Shown here piece after piece: positions 1,394-18,687 of a stretch of DNA of 64,000 nucleotides (its first letter is position 1; each line of letters begins with the position of its first letter). Origin of the DNA: Escherichia phage 55. The notes beneath the pieces were generated by a model. It saw nothing but the letters and a program-made list of their open reading frames with translations, made no database searches and was not told the DNA's origin. The stretch is from sequence record OQ599310. One strand, written 5' to 3'. A program made the translations under genes and the position numbers.

Positions 1394-1853
1394 AAACTAT
1401 ATCAAGGGCGATATTGTCGCCCTGTTTTCTAAAGGTAATAATATTGCTCATGGGTGTAATTGTTTTCATACAATGGGCGCCGGTGTAGCAGGCCAATTAG
1501 CAAAGGCTTATCCAAAAATTTTAGAAGCCGATAAACTTCAAACCGAATTCGGAGACGAGTCTAAACTCGGGTCTTATTCGGTTTATGAAAAATATTTTAA
1601 GACCCATAAAGCTTATTGCTTTAATCTTTATACACAGTTTGAGCCCGGACCTAATTTTGAGTACTCTGCTTTAATGAATTGTATAATAGAATTAAATGAA
1701 TTCGGAAAGAATAAGATAACAAAGCCTGTAATTTATATGCCAAGAATTGGTGCAGGTATCGGTGGCGGAAACTGGGATATCATCGAAGAGATTTTAGATA
1801 CGTATTCCACTAAACTAGAAATTGTGATTGTTGATTGGGAACCATTATTATGA
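1356..1853 (+). CDS. macro-domain (ADP-ribose binding/hydrolase-like) protein
   Basis: GDIVALF...NIAHGCNCFHTMGAGVAGQL and PRIGAGIGGG resemble macrodomain Gly-rich loops; start uncertain (38-nt overlap with upstream ORF). Confidence 0.5.
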   Translation: MTLIIEDLQQVIKNYIKGDIVALFSKGNNIAHGCNCFHTMGAGVAGQLAKAYPKILEADKLQTEFGDESKLGSYSVYEKYFKTHKAYCFNLYTQFEPGPNFEYSALMNCIIELNEFGKNKITKPVIYMPRIGAGIGGGNWDIIEEILDTYSTKLEIVIVDWEPLL

Positions 1854-2062
1854 ATATACATTATCCACATCCATACGACCCAAAGAATAAGGCAGTAATT
1901 ATTCGTCAATGGGAACGCATTTGCCGTACTAAATGTCCAATTAATAGTCCACATGATGTAGATAAAGACTACATTGGAACATTCGTTGAATATACCTTTA
2001 TTGATAAGAAAGGTCGTAAACAGCATGTAGAAGAATACTGCTTAAAGGTGACATGGTTATGA
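1835..2062 (+). CDS. hypothetical protein (75 aa)
   Basis: ORF in tight early-gene array; start overlaps upstream gene. Confidence 0.4.
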   Translation: MGTIIMNIHYPHPYDPKNKAVIIRQWERICRTKCPINSPHDVDKDYIGTFVEYTFIDKKGRKQHVEEYCLKVTWL

Positions 2063-2265
2063 GCCAAACAAAAATTCTTACAGGCGCTAAATGCGAAAAA
2101 TGCGAATGGCCTGTAGTTTTTGCTTTATGCAATGACGAAATGGCTTGTGATTTTGATTATTGGTGTTACTGTTCGAACAAAGGTTGTAGCAATCATAAAG
2201 GTGAAGGGTTTTACTCAGGATTTTACCCTTACCCAGATTTCGTTAAAGAAGGTGAACCTAAATGA
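2053..2265 (+). CDS. Cys-rich small protein, putative zinc-binding
   Basis: 70 aa with multiple CxxC-type pairs (CEKCEW..., CYCSNKGCSNH). Confidence 0.45.
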   Translation: MVMSQTKILTGAKCEKCEWPVVFALCNDEMACDFDYWCYCSNKGCSNHKGEGFYSGFYPYPDFVKEGEPK

Positions 2266-2444
2266 AATTGACTAAAGAAGAGAAAGCTAAACTGTTAGAA
2301 CTTATCCATGACCTATTGGATGAACAAGCAGCCACCAATGCGTACGATGAATATGCTCCTTTGACGGACGAAGAATATCACGCATTGATGGAATCATTTG
2401 ACAGGAAAGAACAAGAACTCATTGACTACGTGAATTCACTATAA
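2262..2444 (+). CDS. hypothetical acidic protein (60 aa)
   Basis: ATGA overlap with upstream ORF; helical acidic sequence. Confidence 0.45.
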   Translation: MKLTKEEKAKLLELIHDLLDEQAATNAYDEYAPLTDEEYHALMESFDRKEQELIDYVNSL

Positions 2445-2453
2445 GGGACTCTT

Positions 2454-3035
2454 ATGGCTAGTTTAATTTTTACATATGCCGCTATGAACGCTGGTAAGTC
2501 TGCTTCATTACTTACTGCCGCACATAACTATAAAGAACGTGGCATGGGTGTATTAGTTCTTAAACCGGCTATTGATACTCGTGATTCAAAAGGTGAAATA
2601 GTCTCTCGTATTGGTATTCGTCAGGATGCCAATATAATTACAAAAGACATGGACATCTTTGAATTCTATAAATGGGCTGCAGCACAAAAGGATATTCATT
2701 GTGTATTTGTTGACGAAGCTCAGTTCTTAACTACTGAAAAGGTGTATCAACTTAGTCGTATTGTTGACGTATACAATGTGCCAGTAATGGCATATGGGCT
2801 ACGAACAGATTTTAAAGGTAATCTATTTGAAGGTTCTCAAGCATTAATGGCTATTGCCGATAAGCTTGTTGAACTTAAAGGTGTCTGTCATTGTGGTAAA
2901 AAGGCCACAATGGTAGCTAGAGTCACGGAAGACGGACTTCCAATTACAGATGGCAGTCAAATTGAAATTGGTGATACCGATAGATATGTGTCATTATGCC
3001 GGAAGCATTGGAATGATTTGACAGGGTTGTTATAA
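2454..3035 (+). CDS. tk: thymidine kinase
   Basis: MASLIFTYAAMNAGKS P-loop start, CHCGKKA zinc motif; near-collinear with T4 Tk as recalled. Confidence 0.95.
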   Translation: MASLIFTYAAMNAGKSASLLTAAHNYKERGMGVLVLKPAIDTRDSKGEIVSRIGIRQDANIITKDMDIFEFYKWAAAQKDIHCVFVDEAQFLTTEKVYQLSRIVDVYNVPVMAYGLRTDFKGNLFEGSQALMAIADKLVELKGVCHCGKKATMVARVTEDGLPITDGSQIEIGDTDRYVSLCRKHWNDLTGLL

Positions 3036-3038
3036 ATA
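3031..3038 (+). promoter_or_regulatory. late-promoter-like TATAAATA overlapping tk stop codon
   Basis: exact TATAAATA about 25 nt upstream of the ATG at 3063. Confidence 0.35.
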
Positions 3039-3062
3039 CTAATATCTAATCAAGAGGTATAT

Positions 3063-3275
3063 ATGTAGCAATTAAACGAAAGACAACTTCGTAATCTTAC
3101 TGTAACCCAATTGGATGAAATCCGAAGAGAATTAGGACATTCTATTTCTCATTTAAATGAGGATATCCGTCAAACTGGTTCTAAAGCTGATTATACACGC
3201 AAGCGCAAGCTGGAAAAATACCTCACAGATGTTAAGGCCGTCCAAAGGCGAAAAATAAATACTGGCCAAAATTAA
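3063..3275 (+). pseudogene. small ORF with in-frame TAG as codon 2 (possible amber-interrupted gene between tk and rI)
   Basis: AAGAGG RBS, ATG at 3063 followed directly by TAG, then 68 sense codons with protein-like composition ending TAA at 3273..3275. Confidence 0.3.
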
Positions 3276-3287
3276 CAGGAGGCCTAT

Positions 3288-3590
3288 ATGGCCTTAAGAG
3301 CGATAGCTGTCATAGCGATGCTGGGGTTTTTTGCAGCAACAACTCCTATCGTTGGTACTGCACATATCGACCCATATTTTGATAACTTTATGGAATCAGG
3401 GATTAAAAACGTATATACTTTGTTTGAAATTCAAAATGTCGAGAATTCTGAAAAATTCTATAAGTATATGGCAAAGCATTACAAAAATAGTCCCTGTGAT
3501 GATGCATTTGAATGTCATGAACAAGGCATAAAAACCGCCAGACAATTTGCTGAGTTCATGAAAATAAAATTAGAGCCTACATCTATCTAA
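3288..3590 (+). CDS. rI: lysis-inhibition regulator RI-like protein with signal-anchor
   Basis: 100 aa, hydrophobic N-terminus, AGGAGG RBS; position downstream of tk and size match T4 rI. Confidence 0.6.
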   Translation: MALRAIAVIAMLGFFAATTPIVGTAHIDPYFDNFMESGIKNVYTLFEIQNVENSEKFYKYMAKHYKNSPCDDAFECHEQGIKTARQFAEFMKIKLEPTSI

Positions 3591-3596
3591 TTTACT

Positions 3597-3625
3597 AGCC
3601 CCTTCCGAAAGGTTGGGGCTTTTTG
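3597..3625 (+). terminator. rho-independent terminator after rI
   Basis: AGCCCC...GGGGCT stem with inner GAAA loop followed by TTTTT. Confidence 0.55.
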
Positions 3626-3635
3626 GCATTTAGCA

Positions 3636-3664
3636 GTTTACTTTTCCTCAGGTTGTGTTATAGT
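3636..3664 (+). promoter_or_regulatory. early promoter (sigma70-like, -35 GTTTAC, -10 TATAGT, 17-nt spacer)
   Basis: GTTTAC 3636..3641, TATAGT 3659..3664. Confidence 0.55.
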
Positions 3665-3691
3665 AGACCTTACTTACTAGAGGAGAACATT

Positions 3692-3871
3692 ATGACACGT
3701 AAAGAAAAAATTTCTAAGTTAATGTTTTTGATTGAAGAGTACGCTAATGCGGTATCTGATTGGGAAAATGCTCATGGTTGCGAAGATGGAGACATCGACA
3801 TTAACAGGGCCATGAAAAAGATGGCTGATACGCACACCGAATTGCAAATGTATGTTAACGAGATTATGTGA
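3692..3871 (+). CDS. hypothetical small protein (59 aa)
   Basis: GAGGAG RBS before ATG at 3692; track ORF 3623 extends upstream through the promoter. Confidence 0.5.
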   Translation: MTRKEKISKLMFLIEEYANAVSDWENAHGCEDGDIDINRAMKKMADTHTELQMYVNEIM

Positions 3872-3878
3872 GGATATT

Positions 3879-4088
3879 ATGCTTTACGATTATACTGGAA
3901 AATCTGAAGACGGTGTACTTGAACTTTTACCTGAAAGCGCTGAAGATGACGATATGACGACGGTGATGTTTTGTAAAAATGGCCCTGGGGATAAGGGATG
4001 GATTTATCTTCGTCAAGAAAATGACTTAATTGTTTTGGACCCTAAACAAGTTGAAGAACTTTATCAACATTTAAAACACAATCGGTAG
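3879..4088 (+). CDS. hypothetical acidic protein (69 aa)
   Basis: GAGGA RBS before ATG at 3879. Confidence 0.5.
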   Translation: MLYDYTGKSEDGVLELLPESAEDDDMTTVMFCKNGPGDKGWIYLRQENDLIVLDPKQVEELYQHLKHNR

Positions 4089-4126
4089 TTTACAACTTGA
4101 TAGGACTATGTTATAGTAGTCCTATC
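4088..4126 (+). promoter_or_regulatory. early promoter with 10-bp inverted repeat spanning the -10
   Basis: GTTTAC 4088..4093, TATAGT 4112..4117; GATAGGACTA / TAGTCCTATC arms. Confidence 0.55.
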
Positions 4127-4145
4127 AAACCGAACGGAGAACAAA

Positions 4146-4256
4146 ATGAAACTTTTGCTTATCGCTTATGTTGTAGTACAATACAATTATCCGATGTTTA
4201 CTTATAACATGGTAAACGGCATAGTGAATCTTATTGAAATGAGTATGGTAAAATGA
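4146..4256 (+). CDS. small hydrophobic ORF (36 aa), not in track
   Basis: GGAG RBS before ATG at 4146; stop overlaps next start as ATGA. Confidence 0.3.
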   Translation: MKLLLIAYVVVQYNYPMFTYNMVNGIVNLIEMSMVK

Positions 4257-4432
4257 CCCGTGAACAAGCTAATAAATTGATGGACCTTATCCGTGACCTA
4301 CGTGAAGCCGATTCAGATTTGAATGATGTAGCTTATCACGCGGTAAATGATAACGGAGACTTTTATGAAAATCAGGTTGACGCTTGCCAGAATGCTTTGG
4401 TGAATTTTGTTGAAACTTTAATTGGTGAATAA
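4253..4432 (+). CDS. small acidic ORF (59 aa), not in track
   Basis: ATGA-coupled start; protein-like sequence; stop 2 nt before next ATG. Confidence 0.4.
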   Translation: MTREQANKLMDLIRDLREADSDLNDVAYHAVNDNGDFYENQVDACQNALVNFVETLIGE

Positions 4433-4433
4433 T

Positions 4434-4964
4434 ATGAAAACTGTAATTGAAACAACAGAGTTGTTCGGTGATTTATGTATTGAAAAACGCGGTTATGCTT
4501 ACGTTCTGACGCAAGAAGATGATTCTGTTACTATTCTTCCTATGGAACTGGACAAGATTTTGAAACTCAATCCGCCAGGCCATGCATCTGTAATTAACAT
4601 CGATGAAGACCTTCAAGTTCGTTTTTATCACGGTCTTTATAGTGGGGTTAATATCGAAACAGAAGATGAATGCCTTTCTATCAATAATTGGAAAACATTC
4701 GTCACTAAGGTGAAAGAATTAATGGAATCTGAAATAGCCAAAAAGGCCAAACTTCAATGGGCTAAATGCCGTAATGCTTTTATTACAAATCAGGACCGCC
4801 CTGACTATACAACAGTCCTAGGCGTTAATCCTTCTTATGAAGATGGCGATGTTGTAGTTATTCGTCAAATTGATGACCTTCGTCAACATATCGTTACATT
4901 AGACAAAGATGAAGCAGTTGCTCTTAAAGCTTATCTCGATTCTATTATCCCGACTTTGAAATAA
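4434..4964 (+). CDS. hypothetical protein (176 aa)
   Basis: ATG at 4434 (track start 4422 is TTG). Confidence 0.6.
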   Translation: MKTVIETTELFGDLCIEKRGYAYVLTQEDDSVTILPMELDKILKLNPPGHASVINIDEDLQVRFYHGLYSGVNIETEDECLSINNWKTFVTKVKELMESEIAKKAKLQWAKCRNAFITNQDRPDYTTVLGVNPSYEDGDVVVIRQIDDLRQHIVTLDKDEAVALKAYLDSIIPTLK

Positions 4965-12890: not shown

Positions 12891-13054
12891 TTGAATTAAT
12901 GTTGGGTGTTTTGTATATTATCATTGGTATTGGCTATGCTAAGACCCTAGCTAAATTAGATGATTTCGGTGTAGGTGATTTTTGTTGGTGGCTGACGTCT
13001 ATGATTTGTTGGCCTTTATTTCTGGTTGGTGCTTCATTCTGGAACTTTAAATGA
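12887..13054 (+). CDS. small membrane ORF (55 aa), not in track
   Basis: ATGA overlap with nrdC stop; hydrophobic sequence. Confidence 0.4.
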   Translation: MIELMLGVLYIIIGIGYAKTLAKLDDFGVGDFCWWLTSMICWPLFLVGASFWNFK

Positions 13055-13076
13055 TTAATGAATTTATGGTGGAATT

Positions 13077-13385
13077 ATGAGTGAATTAAGTGGACAAACA
13101 ATTTATCTAGGCGATGGTAACGAAGACGACCTGGAATATAAACTATATGAATACATGGTAGCCCTGGCGAAAGAAGAAGGTATTGACTTTGCTGTTGCTA
13201 ACCATTGGGGTGAAAACACCGTCGTAATTGGTGGCACTGCTTATGAAGTCCAATGGCAATACGTTGGACTAGAACCTGAAGAATATAACGTCACTGACGA
13301 CGGTAAATGGATTCCTATCGGTCCCTGGTCCTGGAATGATGACGAACCCGATTTTGAAGTATCGAGCTATTGGTGTGACCGTTAA
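13077..13385 (+). CDS. hypothetical acidic protein
   Basis: 102-aa ORF. Confidence 0.55.
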   Translation: MSELSGQTIYLGDGNEDDLEYKLYEYMVALAKEEGIDFAVANHWGENTVVIGGTAYEVQWQYVGLEPEEYNVTDDGKWIPIGPWSWNDDEPDFEVSSYWCDR

Positions 13386-13524
13386 GCCATGGTATGTCGC
13401 TCGATGGGAGACTGTCGAGCCAGACGTTGAAACAGTTTACAACGACGAAGAAACGTGTTATGATGAACCTTCAATAAATGAATTAATTGATATGGAAATG
13501 GGAAGAGATTATTATGCAAGTTAA
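13336..13524 (+). CDS. possible small ORF (start uncertain)
   Basis: track ORF overlapping upstream gene by 50 nt; no clear RBS. Confidence 0.25.
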   Translation: MMTNPILKYRAIGVTVKPWYVARWETVEPDVETVYNDEETCYDEPSINELIDMEMGRDYYAS

Positions 13525-14134: not shown

Positions 14135-14608
14135 ATGTTATTATCAGGCGCAAAATATAAAGAAGAAAAACAAAAATTTTATGATGCACAGAACGGTAAG
14201 TGTCCTATTTGCCACCGTGAATTAGACCCTGATGTTCAAGGTAACCATCTTGACCACGACCACGAATTAAACGGGCCAAAAGCCGGTAGAGTTCGTGGAT
14301 TACTCTGTAATCTGTGCAACGCAGCAGAAGGTCAAATGAAGCATAAGTTCAATCGTTCTGGTCTTAAAGGTCAAAACGTTGATTACCTCGAATGGCTTGA
14401 AGCTCTTCTTGCTTATTTGAAACAAGATTATTCTGATAATAATATCCATCCTAATTTTGTTCCAGACAAAACTAAAGAGTTCTCAAGACTAGGTAAAGAG
14501 GAAATGATGACTGAGATGCTTCAAAGAGGATTTGAATATAATGAATCTGATACTAAAACACAATTAATAGCTTCATTCAAAAAGCAGCTTAGAAAGAGTT
14601 TAAAATGA
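14135..14608 (+). CDS. 49: recombination endonuclease VII
   Basis: 157 aa; CPIC...HLDHDHEL...CNLCN motifs; matches T4 gp49 as recalled. Confidence 0.9.
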   Translation: MLLSGAKYKEEKQKFYDAQNGKCPICHRELDPDVQGNHLDHDHELNGPKAGRVRGLLCNLCNAAEGQMKHKFNRSGLKGQNVDYLEWLEALLAYLKQDYSDNNIHPNFVPDKTKEFSRLGKEEMMTEMLQRGFEYNESDTKTQLIASFKKQLRKSLK

Positions 14609-15426
14609 ATGTAGTATATAAACTATCATTTATTAATAGAATTAATGCTAAAACCCCACCATATTATTACATTGGAAGTAAAACCAATTGCACTTTTGAT
14701 GGAACGAATATTATTGATAAAAATGGTAAATTTTATTATTCGTCTTCGTCATCTTCCGAATTTCAAAAAGCCTTATTGAAAGAAACGCCGAAAGTTGAAA
14801 TATTATATTTTCAATTAGTCGGAGATGAACAAATAACTAGCATTGAAGCTGAATTTCAAAAGAATATAGAAAAAGATGTATGGAATAAAGAGTATTTTAA
14901 TTTAGCATATGCTGATGGCAAATTTACGACATATGGTATTTCTCCTTCTAAAGAAACTAGAGAAAAGCAATCAATAACCATGATTAAAAGAAATCGTAAT
15001 AAAGGCAAAAATCATGGATTTTATGGAAAGCATCATACTAATTTAGCCAGAAAGAAAATATCAGAAGCTTCTAAAAAATACTGGAAAGAAAATCCGCATC
15101 GTGGATTTTCGCATACAAAGGAAGCTAAAATTAAAATTGGAATTTCATCTTCTATCAGGCATAAAGGAAGTGGAAATCCGATGTATGGTGTAAAACCTTG
15201 GAAAACTCCGAACGCAATTAAATCTGGTACTTGTATATTATGGTTAAAATACGCAGAAATTTTATATGATTATTTAGGTCCAGATTTTAAAAGTAAATCA
15301 TCTATTTTTGCGGATTTAAACTTACCGAAATTTAGAATTGATAATTTCATCAAAAGGTTTAAAATGGGTTGGAACCCATATTTAGACGAAGAATTTCAAA
15401 AGGATAAATTAGAATTATGTCTTTAG
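14605..15426 (+). CDS. free-standing homing endonuclease (Seg-like, divergent GIY-YIG with NUMOD3-type DNA-binding motifs)
   Basis: N-terminal VVYK...YYIGSK; repeated GKHHT..KKIS / SHTKEAKIKIG motifs; very AT-rich gene between 49 and nrdD. Confidence 0.55.
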   Translation: MNVVYKLSFINRINAKTPPYYYIGSKTNCTFDGTNIIDKNGKFYYSSSSSSEFQKALLKETPKVEILYFQLVGDEQITSIEAEFQKNIEKDVWNKEYFNLAYADGKFTTYGISPSKETREKQSITMIKRNRNKGKNHGFYGKHHTNLARKKISEASKKYWKENPHRGFSHTKEAKIKIGISSSIRHKGSGNPMYGVKPWKTPNAIKSGTCILWLKYAEILYDYLGPDFKSKSSIFADLNLPKFRIDNFIKRFKMGWNPYLDEEFQKDKLELCL

Positions 15427-17234
15427 AGAAAGATGTTTTAAATTTTATTTCAAATAAAGATAAAGAATTAAATACCGAAAACGCCAACAAAGATTCTCGT
15501 GTCTTTCCAACAAAAAGAGATTTAATGGCCGGTATTGTTTCTAAACATATCGCTTGTCGTATTCTTCCAAGTCATATTGTAAATGCCCATAATGTTGGAT
15601 TAATTCATTTTCATGATTTAGATTACAGTATATCATTGCCTTTTACTAATTGTTGTTTAGTAGATTTAAAAGGAATGCTTGAGAATGGATTTAAATTAGG
15701 CAATGCTCAAATTGAAACGCCTAAATCTATTGGCGTTGCTACTGCAATTATGGCACAAATTACCGCGCAAGTTGCTTCACATCAGTATGGCGGAACTACA
15801 TTTGCGAATGTCGATAAAGTTCTTTCTCCTTATGTTAAACGTACATACGCTAAACATGTTGAAGATGCAGAAAAATGGCAAATCACCGATGCACCGAATT
15901 ATGCTCAATCTAAAACAGAAAAAGACGTATACGATGCATTCCAAGCTTATGAATATGAAGTAAATACTCTCTTTAGTTCAAACGGACAAACGCCTTTTGT
16001 AACAATTACATTTGGTACGGGAACTGACTGGACTGAACGAATGATTCAGAAAGCAATTCTGAAAAATCGTATTAAAGGTCTTGGACGTGATGGGATAACT
16101 CCTATTTTCCCTAAGCTTGTTATGTTTGTTGAAGAAGGTGTTAATCTTTATAAAGATGATCCGAACTATGATATTAAACAACTTGCGTTAGAATGTGCAA
16201 GCAAAAGAATGTATCCTGACATTATTTCGGTTAAGAATAATAAAGCTATTACTGGTTCTTCAATTCCTGTTTCTCCGATGGGTTGCCGTAGTTTCTTGAG
16301 TGTATGGAAAGATTCGACTGGCAATGAAATTCTTGATGGACGTAATAATCTCGGTGTTGTAACACTGAATCTTCCTCGTATCGCATTAGATTCTTATATT
16401 GGAACACAGTTCAATGAACAGAAATTTACTGAATTGTTTGATGAGCGAATGGACCTGTGTTTTGAAGCTTTGATGTGTAGAATTAGTTCCTTAAAAGGAG
16501 TTAAAGCTACTGTTGCTCCTATTCTTTACCAAGAAGGTGCATTCGGGGTTCGTCTTAAACCTGATGACGACATAATTGAGTTATTTAAAAACGGCAGAAG
16601 TTCAGTGTCTTTAGGATACATCGGTATTCATGAATTGAATATTCTTGTTGGTCGTGATATTGGACAAGAAATTTTAACTAAAATGAATGCTCATCTTAAA
16701 CAGTGGACCGAAAGAACTGGATTTGCTTTTAGTTTATATTCTACTCCTGCTGAAAACTTGTGTTATCGTTTCTGTAAACTCGACACAGAAAAATATGGAA
16801 GCGTAAAAGATGTTACCGATAAAGGCTGGTACACTAATAGTTTCCACGTTTCAGTAGAAGAAAATATTACTCCGTTTGAAAAGATTTCTCGTGAAGCGCC
16901 ATATCATTTCATTGCGACAGGTGGTCACATTTCTTATGTTGAACTTCCTGATATGAAAAATAACTTAAAAGGACTTGAGGCTGTCTGGGATTATGCTGCA
17001 CAACATTTAGATTATTTTGGTGTTAATATGCCAGTAGATAAGTGTTTTACATGCGGAAGTACCCATGAAATGACTCCTACTGAAAACGGATTTGTTTGTT
17101 CAGTTTGCGGAGAAACTGATCCTAAAAAGATGAACACCATAAGAAGAACATGCGGTTATCTTGGAAATCCGAACGAACGCGGATTTAATCTCGGTAAAAA
17201 TAAAGAAATCATGCATAGGGTTAAACACCAATGA
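15417..17234 (+). CDS. nrdD: anaerobic ribonucleoside-triphosphate reductase
   Basis: 605 aa; C-terminal Cys cluster (CFTCGSTHEM...CSVCG) and RxxCGY glycyl-radical-type tail; no intron. Confidence 0.95.
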   Translation: MSLEKDVLNFISNKDKELNTENANKDSRVFPTKRDLMAGIVSKHIACRILPSHIVNAHNVGLIHFHDLDYSISLPFTNCCLVDLKGMLENGFKLGNAQIETPKSIGVATAIMAQITAQVASHQYGGTTFANVDKVLSPYVKRTYAKHVEDAEKWQITDAPNYAQSKTEKDVYDAFQAYEYEVNTLFSSNGQTPFVTITFGTGTDWTERMIQKAILKNRIKGLGRDGITPIFPKLVMFVEEGVNLYKDDPNYDIKQLALECASKRMYPDIISVKNNKAITGSSIPVSPMGCRSFLSVWKDSTGNEILDGRNNLGVVTLNLPRIALDSYIGTQFNEQKFTELFDERMDLCFEALMCRISSLKGVKATVAPILYQEGAFGVRLKPDDDIIELFKNGRSSVSLGYIGIHELNILVGRDIGQEILTKMNAHLKQWTERTGFAFSLYSTPAENLCYRFCKLDTEKYGSVKDVTDKGWYTNSFHVSVEENITPFEKISREAPYHFIATGGHISYVELPDMKNNLKGLEAVWDYAAQHLDYFGVNMPVDKCFTCGSTHEMTPTENGFVCSVCGETDPKKMNTIRRTCGYLGNPNERGFNLGKNKEIMHRVKHQ

Positions 17235-17701
17235 ATTATGATAGATTTTATCCTTGCGATTTTGTGAATGGCCCTGGTTGCAGGGTCGTTCTTTTCGTTA
17301 CAGGTTGTTTGCATAAATGCGAAGGGTGTTATAATAAATCAACATGGAATGCTAGAAATGGTATTCCATTCACTGGTGAAACACTAGAACAATTAATTGA
17401 ATGTTTGAATAATGATTATATAGAAGGATTAACTATAACTGGAGGTGACCCTCTTTATCCTGATAACAGAGACGTGATTCACTCTGTGGTACAAACTATT
17501 AAAAATCTTTATCCCAATAAAAGCATTTGGTTGTGGACAGGATATAAGTTTGAAGATATTAAACAACTAGAAATGCTTAAATATGTTGATGTTATTATTG
17601 ATGGGAAGTATGAGAAAAATCTTCCGACCAAAAAGCTGTGGCGAGGATCAGATAATCAGCGACTTTGGTCAAATACCAACGGGGTGTGGAAACATGATTA
17701 A
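17231..17701 (+). CDS. nrdG: anaerobic RNR activating enzyme (radical SAM)
   Basis: CxxxCxxC-type motif (GCLHKCEGCYN); ATGA-coupled to nrdD. Confidence 0.9.
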   Translation: MNYDRFYPCDFVNGPGCRVVLFVTGCLHKCEGCYNKSTWNARNGIPFTGETLEQLIECLNNDYIEGLTITGGDPLYPDNRDVIHSVVQTIKNLYPNKSIWLWTGYKFEDIKQLEMLKYVDVIIDGKYEKNLPTKKLWRGSDNQRLWSNTNGVWKHD

Positions 17702-17815
17702 ATTGAATTATATTATGGATACTATAAATGATATGATTTTTCATTTTGGTCCAGAATTTTATTCACAGTGTAGTTTAGTGCTTATCAATGCTTGGTTAAC
17801 CAATTAAGGGTAAAT

Positions 17816-18028
17816 ATGTATAAATTTCGTAAAGGTTTAGCTGATTTTCTTACAACTGTAACGTTCTTTTTGTTTATGGCAGTTGGAGCTATTTTTCTTA
17901 TTCCTTTTACTGTTGTATTTTTCGTGATTAGTTTAATTTCTCCGGAAAAGGGTTTATCCTCCAGCGAATTCAATGAACGTTTGGACAAAATTACTAATAA
18001 ACTGAATTCTGTTCTTGGCAAGGAATAA
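17816..18028 (+). CDS. small membrane protein
   Basis: ATG 17816 with AAGGG RBS; central hydrophobic stretch. Confidence 0.5.
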   Translation: MYKFRKGLADFLTTVTFFLFMAVGAIFLIPFTVVFFVISLISPEKGLSSSEFNERLDKITNKLNSVLGKE

Positions 18029-18030
18029 TT

Positions 18031-18339
18031 GTGGAACACAACAAGATTGAAATTTATGGCATCCCTGAAGAAGTAGGACGTTGTCCAGGATGTTATACTG
18101 TTACAAAACTTTTAAAGGAGCTCAATGCTCCTTATACATTTTATAAAGTCCTCACTAATAATGGTAAGATTGAATATGACCGTCCTTTAATTGTATCTCT
18201 TGCTAAACGTGCAGGATTCACTTCACTTAATATTCGTTATCCTGTCATATTTTTAAATGGTAAGAAACAAAAGAATATTGCAGAGTTTAAAAAGTCCTTG
18301 ATTTCATTAGGATACGACTCTGATATCATAGAAGATTGA
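18031..18339 (+). CDS. nrdH: glutaredoxin-like protein NrdH
   Basis: CPGCY redox motif; GTG start 6 nt after AAGGA. Confidence 0.75.
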   Translation: MEHNKIEIYGIPEEVGRCPGCYTVTKLLKELNAPYTFYKVLTNNGKIEYDRPLIVSLAKRAGFTSLNIRYPVIFLNGKKQKNIAEFKKSLISLGYDSDIIED

Positions 18340-18363
18340 CCAGGTGCCGCCTGGTCTTCTTTA
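18338..18363 (+). terminator. stem-loop terminator after nrdH
   Basis: GACCAGG-tgccg-CCTGGTC followed by T-rich tract. Confidence 0.5.
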
Positions 18364-18447
18364 TCCCATTTCTAATATACTCCATTGGAATCTTCACTTC
18401 ACTATCTCCTTGTGCCCCTCTCAAATCAAAAATATTTTCATAAAACA

Positions 18448-18476
18448 GTTTACATCCTCAATAGATGTGTTAAGAT
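18448..18476 (+). promoter_or_regulatory. early promoter (-35 GTTTAC, -10 TAAGAT)
   Basis: GTTTAC 18448..18453, 17-nt spacer; CTCAATAGATG/CATCTACTATAGAGG inverted repeat. Confidence 0.45.
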
Positions 18477-18504
18477 TAAACCATCTACTATAGAGGAAAA
18501 TAAA

Positions 18505-18687
18505 ATGACAATTGAAGATAAAGAAATTAAGGTCGACCAGTACTATTCTGTCAACGGTAATGCAGTACAGATAACCAGAGTTTCAAGCCTGGATGTTTGG
18601 TACCGTTCAATCAAATATCCAGAAATTGGTGAAATGCTTTGTGACCGTGGTATCTTCTGTTCAATTGCGAAGGAAATTAAGCCATGA
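18505..18687 (+). CDS. hypothetical small protein (60 aa)
   Basis: GAGGAAAA RBS before ATG 18505. Confidence 0.5.
   Translation: MTIEDKEIKVDQYYSVNGNAVQITRVSSLDVWYRSIKYPEIGEMLCDRGIFCSIAKEIKP

Follow-up and report, generated by a model that had tools for sequence, protein, structure and literature searches.

The T4 protein SegG is an active, free-standing homing endonuclease of the GIY-YIG class, encoded between genes 59 and 32 and directed against gene 32 (PMC2988022, Table 1). The free-standing Seg enzymes that have been characterised cut within a neighbouring conserved gene, at distances of hundreds of bases and upwards from where they are encoded, and segC, segF, segG and several mob genes lack promoters and are read from upstream transcripts (PMC2988022). 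SegF, a hybrid enzyme encoded between soc and 56, carries out "intronless homing" and causes localised marker exclusion (Belle et al. 2002, as described in PMC2988022). The gene for anaerobic ribonucleotide reductase, nrdD, is a known hot spot for homing endonucleases: I-TevII is encoded in the nrdD intron, at about codon 180, and MobC and SegH lie at the nrdD/nrdG junction (PMC2988022). The junction of nrdD with gene 49 (endonuclease VII) is not among the sites of the 15 T4 endonuclease genes in Table 1 of that 2010 review. Here we describe an open reading frame (ORF) at this 49/nrdD junction in Escherichia phage 55, found within a 64,000-nucleotide (nt) stretch of sequence record OQ599310 (the window). 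The ORF is very probably a free-standing homing endonuclease gene of the SegG family, whose product has a divergent GIY-YIG domain, a NUMOD3 linker, and a helical C-terminal domain, and which would home into the 5' region of nrdD. A literature search returned no publication that deals with an endonuclease gene between 49 and nrdD.

The 49/nrdD site is occupied in some phages and empty in most. When gene 49 of the window, joined directly to the nrdD of the window, was used as a query, it matched 774 phage records, and nearly all of the matches listed are a single uninterrupted piece of equal length. The endonuclease ORF is present in 49 records at 96.5-100% identity; carriers therefore represent about 6% (49/774) of the phage records that hold the 49/nrdD flanks. 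In T4, gene 49 overlaps nrdD by ATGA with nothing between them, and gene 49 abuts nrdD in every insert-free viral-contig locus that has both genes, down to an NrdD identity of 67%. The insertion point is identical in all coliphage copies, exactly at the ATGA junction, and both Mosigvirus and Tequatrovirus are represented among the taxonomic assignments of carriers. When viral and metagenome collections were scanned, they yielded just two additional copies and one additional copy, respectively. Many GenBank records label the gene "homing endonuclease," and one "SegG homing endonuclease." A preliminary description of the window had taken the ORF for a mobile insertion and had proposed a comparison with relatives; the presence/absence polymorphism revealed by that comparison, with T4 and most relatives having an empty site, and the occurrence of near-identical copies in unlike backbones bear this out.

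The mobile unit extends beyond the ORF into nrdD, whose first 225 nt belong to it. In a comparison of the window with mar005P1, the closest insert-free relative, identity per 100-nt bin is 92-100% throughout gene 49, drops to 65-84% over the first ~225 nt of nrdD, and is back at ~95% afterwards. A base-by-base comparison of five carriers and nine non-carriers reveals that nrdD codons 1-75 are a distinct allele in every carrier compared. Relative to the usual allele, itself nearly uniform in both genera, its nucleotide identity is 63%, and 47 of 75 residues are the same. Past nt ~225 of nrdD, polymorphisms are mosaic and independent of the presence of the insert. The GC content of the block (29.3%) is close to that of the endonuclease ORF (28.6%); the values for gene 49, the remainder of nrdD, and the whole window are 35.9%, 36.0%, and 36.9%, respectively. 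At an identity of at least 95% the block is present in exactly 49 records, the next best match being ~70-75% identical, and it is farther from the T4-type allele than is the NrdD of Klebsiella or Enterobacter phages. All 12 intact gene copies read at the junction (those of eleven loci and of the window) are linked to the block, and no intact copy without it was found. The right-hand boundary of the block is identical in all carriers. On the left, gene 49 side, no foreign tract was found; in carriers of the Tequatrovirus type, gene 49 is of that same type through to its final base. We take the ORF and the block together to be ~1.04 kb of foreign DNA (~14609 to 15641) from some lower-GC, T4-like phage, a donor lineage for which the search with the block returned nothing nearer than ~70-75% identity. 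The recombination arms, in our reading, are the end of gene 49, whose last ~100 nt form a conserved left homology arm, and the PFTNCCLVDLKG region of nrdD, both of which are conserved enough for this role.

Nine copies of the gene were compared for identity, intactness, and the ratio of nonsynonymous to synonymous substitution rates (dN/dS). The ORF is intact in all nine and is under purifying selection, with dN/dS between copies mostly 0.05-0.3. Its identity is 96.6-99.6% both in pairs with unlike backbones, where the adjoining gene 49 is at ~80%, and in pairs with like backbones, where gene 49 is at ~97%. The window and Yersinia phage fPS-90, for example, share 98.9% identity in the ORF and 98.7% in the block vs 80.8% in gene 49, and in all unlike-backbone pairs the ORF and the block are more alike than gene 49. 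Two sub-haplotypes of the block exist, each of which is found on both types of gene 49; therefore, there has been more than one transfer between lineages. The recurrence of near-identical copies, always with the same block alongside, on backbones of 80% identity argues for active, directional spread. In phage AV118 (OR352948.1, 1031-1504), which is filed under Mosigvirus, gene 49 is of the Tequatrovirus type, being 97-98% identical to Tequatrovirus copies and ~80% identical to that of the window; thus, its backbone is mosaic right beside the insert.

Products of decay are also present in public genomes. In phage OLB35 (MH992122.1, 2480-2560, corresponding to window 14605-15440), the endonuclease gene is gone and the block is kept. 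There, nrdD begins MNVVYKLLYFISNKDK, with the first seven endonuclease codons (MNVVYKL) fused in frame, and the loss is an exact 812-nt in-frame deletion; the GenBank record is marked "UNVERIFIED." In phage FL18 (PP400780.1, 3001-4492), endonuclease residues 1-205 run directly into the final ~17 residues of NrdD. In this case, the 3' third of the endonuclease gene (encoding the DNA-binding end) and nearly all of nrdD are missing, and the phage has no nrdD; at the nrdD/nrdG position FL18 has a canonical Seg-type GIY-YIG gene, with NUMOD3 and a weak match to the I-TevI DNA-binding domain. Since it has been lost in both OLB35 and FL18, the endonuclease gene is dispensable. The empty site, the filled site, and the OLB35 and FL18 arrangements are the stages expected of the life cycle of a homing endonuclease. 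A further copy (P0044/L062, Logan ERR4622921 contig, 974-2463; 84% identical) was considered as an intermediate form and rejected, as it is the same gene with single-base deletions. These deletions, at least two of them in A runs, split the copy into three ORFs; they are probably sequencing errors rather than decay, because nrdD is broken in the same contig as well.

The protein has three parts. Its N-terminal domain has as its closest characterised relative T4 SegG (39.8% identity over residues 1-126, E 2e-17), and PHROG 7504, "homing endonuclease," matches residues 1-125 (1e-33). Residues 1-105 are modelled by AlphaFold2 with a predicted local distance difference test score (pLDDT) above 90, and the domain has the alpha/beta fold of the GIY-YIG catalytic domain, with V3-V4-Y5 and Y22-I23-G24 lying within predicted strands 2-8 and 21-26. 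I-TevI is the best structural match, followed by 9u75 (a GIY-YIG restriction enzyme), T4 EndoII, Eco29kI, and UvrC. Among 19 aligned N-terminal domains, the invariant residues are Y5, R12, P19, Y22, G24, S25, K26, Y44, S47, E81, N99, and A103, and in a profile alignment E81 and N99 align with E75 and N90 of I-TevI. The linker provides the only Pfam match of the ORF, to NUMOD3 (PF07460; 29.7 bits vs a cut-off of 20.4), in two stretches, the better at residues 130-153; a profile from the wider alignment matches the I-TevI DNA-binding domain, 1I3J (1.8e-06). The C-terminal helical domain presumably binds DNA. Its relation to the SegG C-terminal domain is seen via intermediate sequences, with P198, W199, W213, G255, P258, and D261 as shared invariants; direct BLASTP of the ORF against SegG C-terminal domains gave no match.

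These results largely agree with the preliminary description, which had recognised a divergent GIY-YIG-like N-terminus (VVYK...YYIGSK) and repeated NUMOD3 motifs. The N-terminal strings are present, and the assignment is supported by the fold comparison and the SegG homology; both NUMOD3-type strings quoted are likewise present, YGKHHTNLARKKIS at residues 140-153 and SHTKEAKIKIG at residues 169-179. Its broader label, a Seg/Mob-type endonuclease, can be narrowed, since the N-terminal domain resembles SegG more closely than it does Seg/Mob proteins at large; Mob proteins (MobC among them) are HNH enzymes, and this protein is not.

Compared with T4 SegG (gene 32.1), the protein shares the N-terminal pattern MN.VY...R...PPYYYIGSK...Y.SS...E...YFNL and a related C-terminal domain (PWKT..., F..GW.P..D.E). 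It exceeds SegG by 62 residues, owing to additional sequence with NUMOD3 motifs in the linker, seen in the SegG-family alignment as an insert of ~55 residues that is absent from T4 SegG. Both genes are promoter-less cassettes just upstream of a conserved gene, which is the known target for SegG (PMC2988022) and the predicted one here. The two differ in site (59/32 vs 49/nrdD) and in target (gene 32 vs, as predicted, nrdD). Like SegF, the gene is free-standing between conserved genes, with a presumed target in the adjoining gene and neighbouring sequence converted along with it, although here the co-converted tract is known only as the fixed 225-nt foreign block. As with SegF, overlaps of a few bases with the neighbouring genes suggest coupled, probably low-level, translation. 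I-TevI, the endonuclease of the T4 td intron, has the same succession of a GIY-YIG catalytic domain, a NUMOD3-type linker, and a small DNA-binding domain. However, I-TevI is encoded in an intron and its cut lies no more than 25 bp from the insertion site (PMC2988022), its N-terminal domain is only ~21% identical over the aligned fold, and the tyrosines of GIY and YIG are separated by 10 residues in I-TevI vs 16 in this protein.

As read from the sequence, the gene is a cassette without a promoter, placed exactly at the gene 49/nrdD junction. Its translation begins at the ribosome-binding region and ATGA start that nrdD uses in insert-free phages, and its 3' end gives nrdD a new ribosome-binding site and start. 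A mechanism for homing can be proposed by analogy with the "intronless homing" of SegF and SegG. In a mixed infection the enzyme would cut the DNA of a non-carrier in, or adjoining, the first ~225 nt of nrdD. Repair of the break by copying the carrier genome would then transfer both the endonuclease gene and the nrdD 5' block, and the block, in which ~37% of the bases differ, would shield the carrier from its own enzyme. Because the enzyme has to spare the genome that encodes it, its target would be expected in sequence that distinguishes every carrier from every non-carrier. The junction and nt 1-225 of nrdD are the only stretches of this kind; gene 49 is not one. A target within gene 49 was considered and rejected, given that carriers and non-carriers of one backbone type share the same gene 49 sequence. 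We infer that the block is the cleavage-resistant allele of the target, forming the right-hand part of the cassette.

One metagenomic locus bears on the position of the cut. L058 (Logan SRR27536177 contig, 1718-4712) is distant but T4-like, with 31% GC and a Proteus-phage-like backbone, and its endonuclease copy, 58% identical, is split by one frameshift. Here the order is gene 49, leftover codons 1-55 of the resident nrdD, the endonuclease gene, and a full-length nrdD whose 5' end is a different one; the leftover ends in a stop that shares ATGA with the start of the endonuclease gene. There is thus a copy of the nrdD 5' end on either side of the insert. Such a layout is the product expected of one-sided (right) repair of a break in nrdD at or past codon 55, a reading to which we give limited weight. 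It suggests that the cut may fall between about codons 55 and 75 of nrdD.

Several observations weigh against a homing endonuclease that is directed at nrdD and accompanied by its own immunity allele. The sequence of the N-terminal domain is far from the canonical GIY-YIG: the Pfam GIY-YIG model (PF01541) has no match to the ORF at E <= 1 and matches only one of 19 family members, with an E of 1.1, and a profile built from the N-terminal domains of the family found no match among solved structures. At the position of the I-TevI arginine R27 there is no arginine; the segment there, FDGTNIID, is modelled as short strands instead of the helix that carries R27 in I-TevI. The block could be donor DNA from one ancient event rather than an immunity allele, and a single origin is possible because the right-hand boundary is the same in every carrier. 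The L058 arrangement comes from a single short assembly of public reads, in which the endonuclease gene is frameshifted, and cleavage by the enzyme is a prediction from sequence. Other model searches were also weak. Pfam SegE_GIY-YIG matches three of the 19 family members, at an E of 0.013 or worse; NCBIfam "group I intron endonuclease" gives 22.1 bits, under its cut-off of 56; and a single-sequence search of solved structures returned only a chance match (E 0.52). Because Pfam GIY-YIG is unmatched, recognition of the GIY-YIG nature of the domain needed the fold comparison and the SegG homology. The missing equivalent of R27 is no argument against activity, since T4 SegG, which is reported to be active, shares it; T4 SegG itself has no Pfam match at all. 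Candidates to replace R27 are K26 and the invariant R12; the latter belongs to a short inserted helix that separates the two strands.

If the block is mere donor DNA, the protein could be a homing endonuclease whose target is the 49/nrdD junction itself, disrupted by the insertion as for intron-encoded enzymes. The exactness of the ATGA insertion in the coliphages would fit such a target, the common right boundary would be expected from one founding event, and the similar GC contents of block and ORF would be those of one foreign piece. However, this is unlikely. The characterised Seg enzymes cut well away from the insertion points of their genes (PMC2988022), and in L058 the cassette follows codon 55 of the resident nrdD instead of sitting at the junction. 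Furthermore, the failure to find an intact gene without the block, in DNA that is conserved and recombining, is easier to explain if their separation is harmful.

It is less likely still that the protein no longer cuts DNA and has been retained, or domesticated, as a DNA-binding protein, such as a regulator or a factor in competition between phages, its patchy distribution then reflecting ordinary recombination and loss. The absence of an arginine aligned with R27 and of a Pfam GIY-YIG match would fit this idea, and purifying selection is compatible with any useful function; in addition, one recent report describes a host-beneficial side effect of another Seg enzyme, SegB (PMC13096335). On the other hand, the family-invariant residues, including Y5, Y22, E81, and N99, are all kept and are the same in T4 SegG, which is reported to be active (PMC2988022), the pattern of near-identical copies on divergent backbones speaks for active spread, and the losses in OLB35 and FL18 show that the gene is dispensable. 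Finally, that the ORF is not a gene at all, and arose as a chance frame or annotation artefact in an AT-rich spacer, has only its unusually low GC in its favour and is refuted by a probability of ~5e-12 for 273 stop-free codons at its composition (the longest open run across 2000 shuffles was 114 codons), by significant domain and family matches, by a confident fold for the first 105 residues, and by a dN/dS well under 1.

Thus, homing into the 5' region of nrdD is the reading that we favour. A more specific version of it is possible, and we put it forward only tentatively. In this version the cassette would have two parts, the endonuclease gene and, as its immunity allele, the foreign N-terminal coding block of nrdD, a gene of an essential pathway, with L058 marking the cut at about codons 55-75 (window 15580-15641); the SegG family would also be a GIY-YIG sub-class without the canonical arginine, using R12 from the inserted helix in its place.

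The arrangement of the locus in the window, including the gene, its domains, and its flanks, is given in the Table. The preliminary description had depicted a very AT-rich ORF with both ends overlapping the flanking genes, next to an nrdD that is free of introns, and each of these features was found. The GC content of the ORF is well below the ~36% of its flanks, the ATG of the endonuclease gene overlaps the TGA of gene 49 as ATGA, and its 3' end shares 10 nt with the start of nrdD. The nrdD of the window has no intron, because one ORF matches the Pfam NRDD model from end to end (positions 1-562/562). In T4, nrdD is a coding sequence in two pieces, and the intron there encodes I-TevII.

Table. 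Features of the gene 49/nrdD region in the window, with domain positions given as the corresponding nucleotides
Feature	Position	Strand	Basis
Gene 49 (endonuclease VII), left flank	14135..14608	+	Pfam Endonuclease_7 4.4e-20, Endonuc-dimeris 9.8e-32
Probable homing endonuclease gene, SegG family, free-standing, 273 codons	14605..15426	+	ATG start
N-terminal divergent GIY-YIG nuclease domain, residues 1-105	14605..14919	+	Fold comparison, SegG homology
Linker, ~residues 113-190, with two NUMOD3 motifs	14941..15174	+	Pfam NUMOD3 6.3e-07
C-terminal helical domain, residues 198-273	15196..15423	+	Related to SegG C-terminal domain
nrdD (anaerobic ribonucleotide reductase), single 605-codon ORF	15417..17234	+	Pfam NRDD 3.7e-171
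nrdD foreign 5' block, codons 1-75	15417..15641	+	Linkage to endonuclease gene, low GC, divergence
nrdD remainder, conserved right homology arm, without intron	15642..17234	+	Pfam NRDD; relatives with or without the insert 92-99% identical

The last conserved codons of the endonuclease gene, FQKDK, hold the ribosome-binding site of nrdD, AAGGA (15400..15404). In both the window and L058 these codons spell AAAAGGA just upstream of the nrdD start; therefore, the cassette carries a ribosome-binding site that keeps nrdD expressed. Promoter-like sites in the region are no commoner than in shuffled sequence, and neither a terminator-like site nor a T4 late-promoter box was found near the endonuclease gene, which fits a promoter-less cassette read from upstream transcripts. 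At neither of the two start codons does RNA folding reach significance (z -1.67 and +0.60). A σ70-like site (TTGATA, 16 nt, TAAAAT; 10/12) is present at 15338-15365, in the 3' end of the endonuclease gene and ~50 nt upstream of the nrdD start; it may be meaningless, as the region is not enriched for such sites relative to the shuffles.

Downstream (17231-17234 and 17701-18031), nrdD and nrdG overlap directly (ATGA), and neither mobC nor segH lies between them. The window contains no I-TevII, MobC, or SegH, and thus lacks both endonuclease genes that T4 has at its nrdD locus. Among other carriers, phages G8, fPS-2, and Manna and the Pu-Krd-SF phages have an interrupted nrdD with a second endonuclease gene, and G8 is a carrier that also has the nrdD intron. 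Elsewhere in the window, ~12900-13500 and ~18000-18600 are regions of small ORFs that vary among close phages; they show ~45-60% identity or gaps relative to JK42 and mar005P1, whereas the sequence elsewhere is 95-99% identical.

The class of enzyme, its mechanism, and this kind of locus are already known, and nothing about the class is changed by the present case. What is new is the 49/nrdD site, the tight linkage of the gene to a foreign block encoding the N-terminus of NrdD, and a natural set of decay products. In cells co-infected by T-even phages, free-standing homing endonucleases influence the survival of alleles (marker exclusion), and GIY-YIG enzymes serve as parts of engineered nucleases. 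This gene adds an uncharacterised relative of SegG that occupies a new insertion site and whose target region in nrdD is clearly predicted. Among public genomes there are examples of the empty site, of the filled site together with a linked allele that is probably resistant, of a precise loss that leaves a chimeric NrdD N-terminus, and of the joint loss of gene and target. Since every stage of the life cycle is represented, the locus provides a convenient natural system in which to follow the invasion and decay of a homing cassette.

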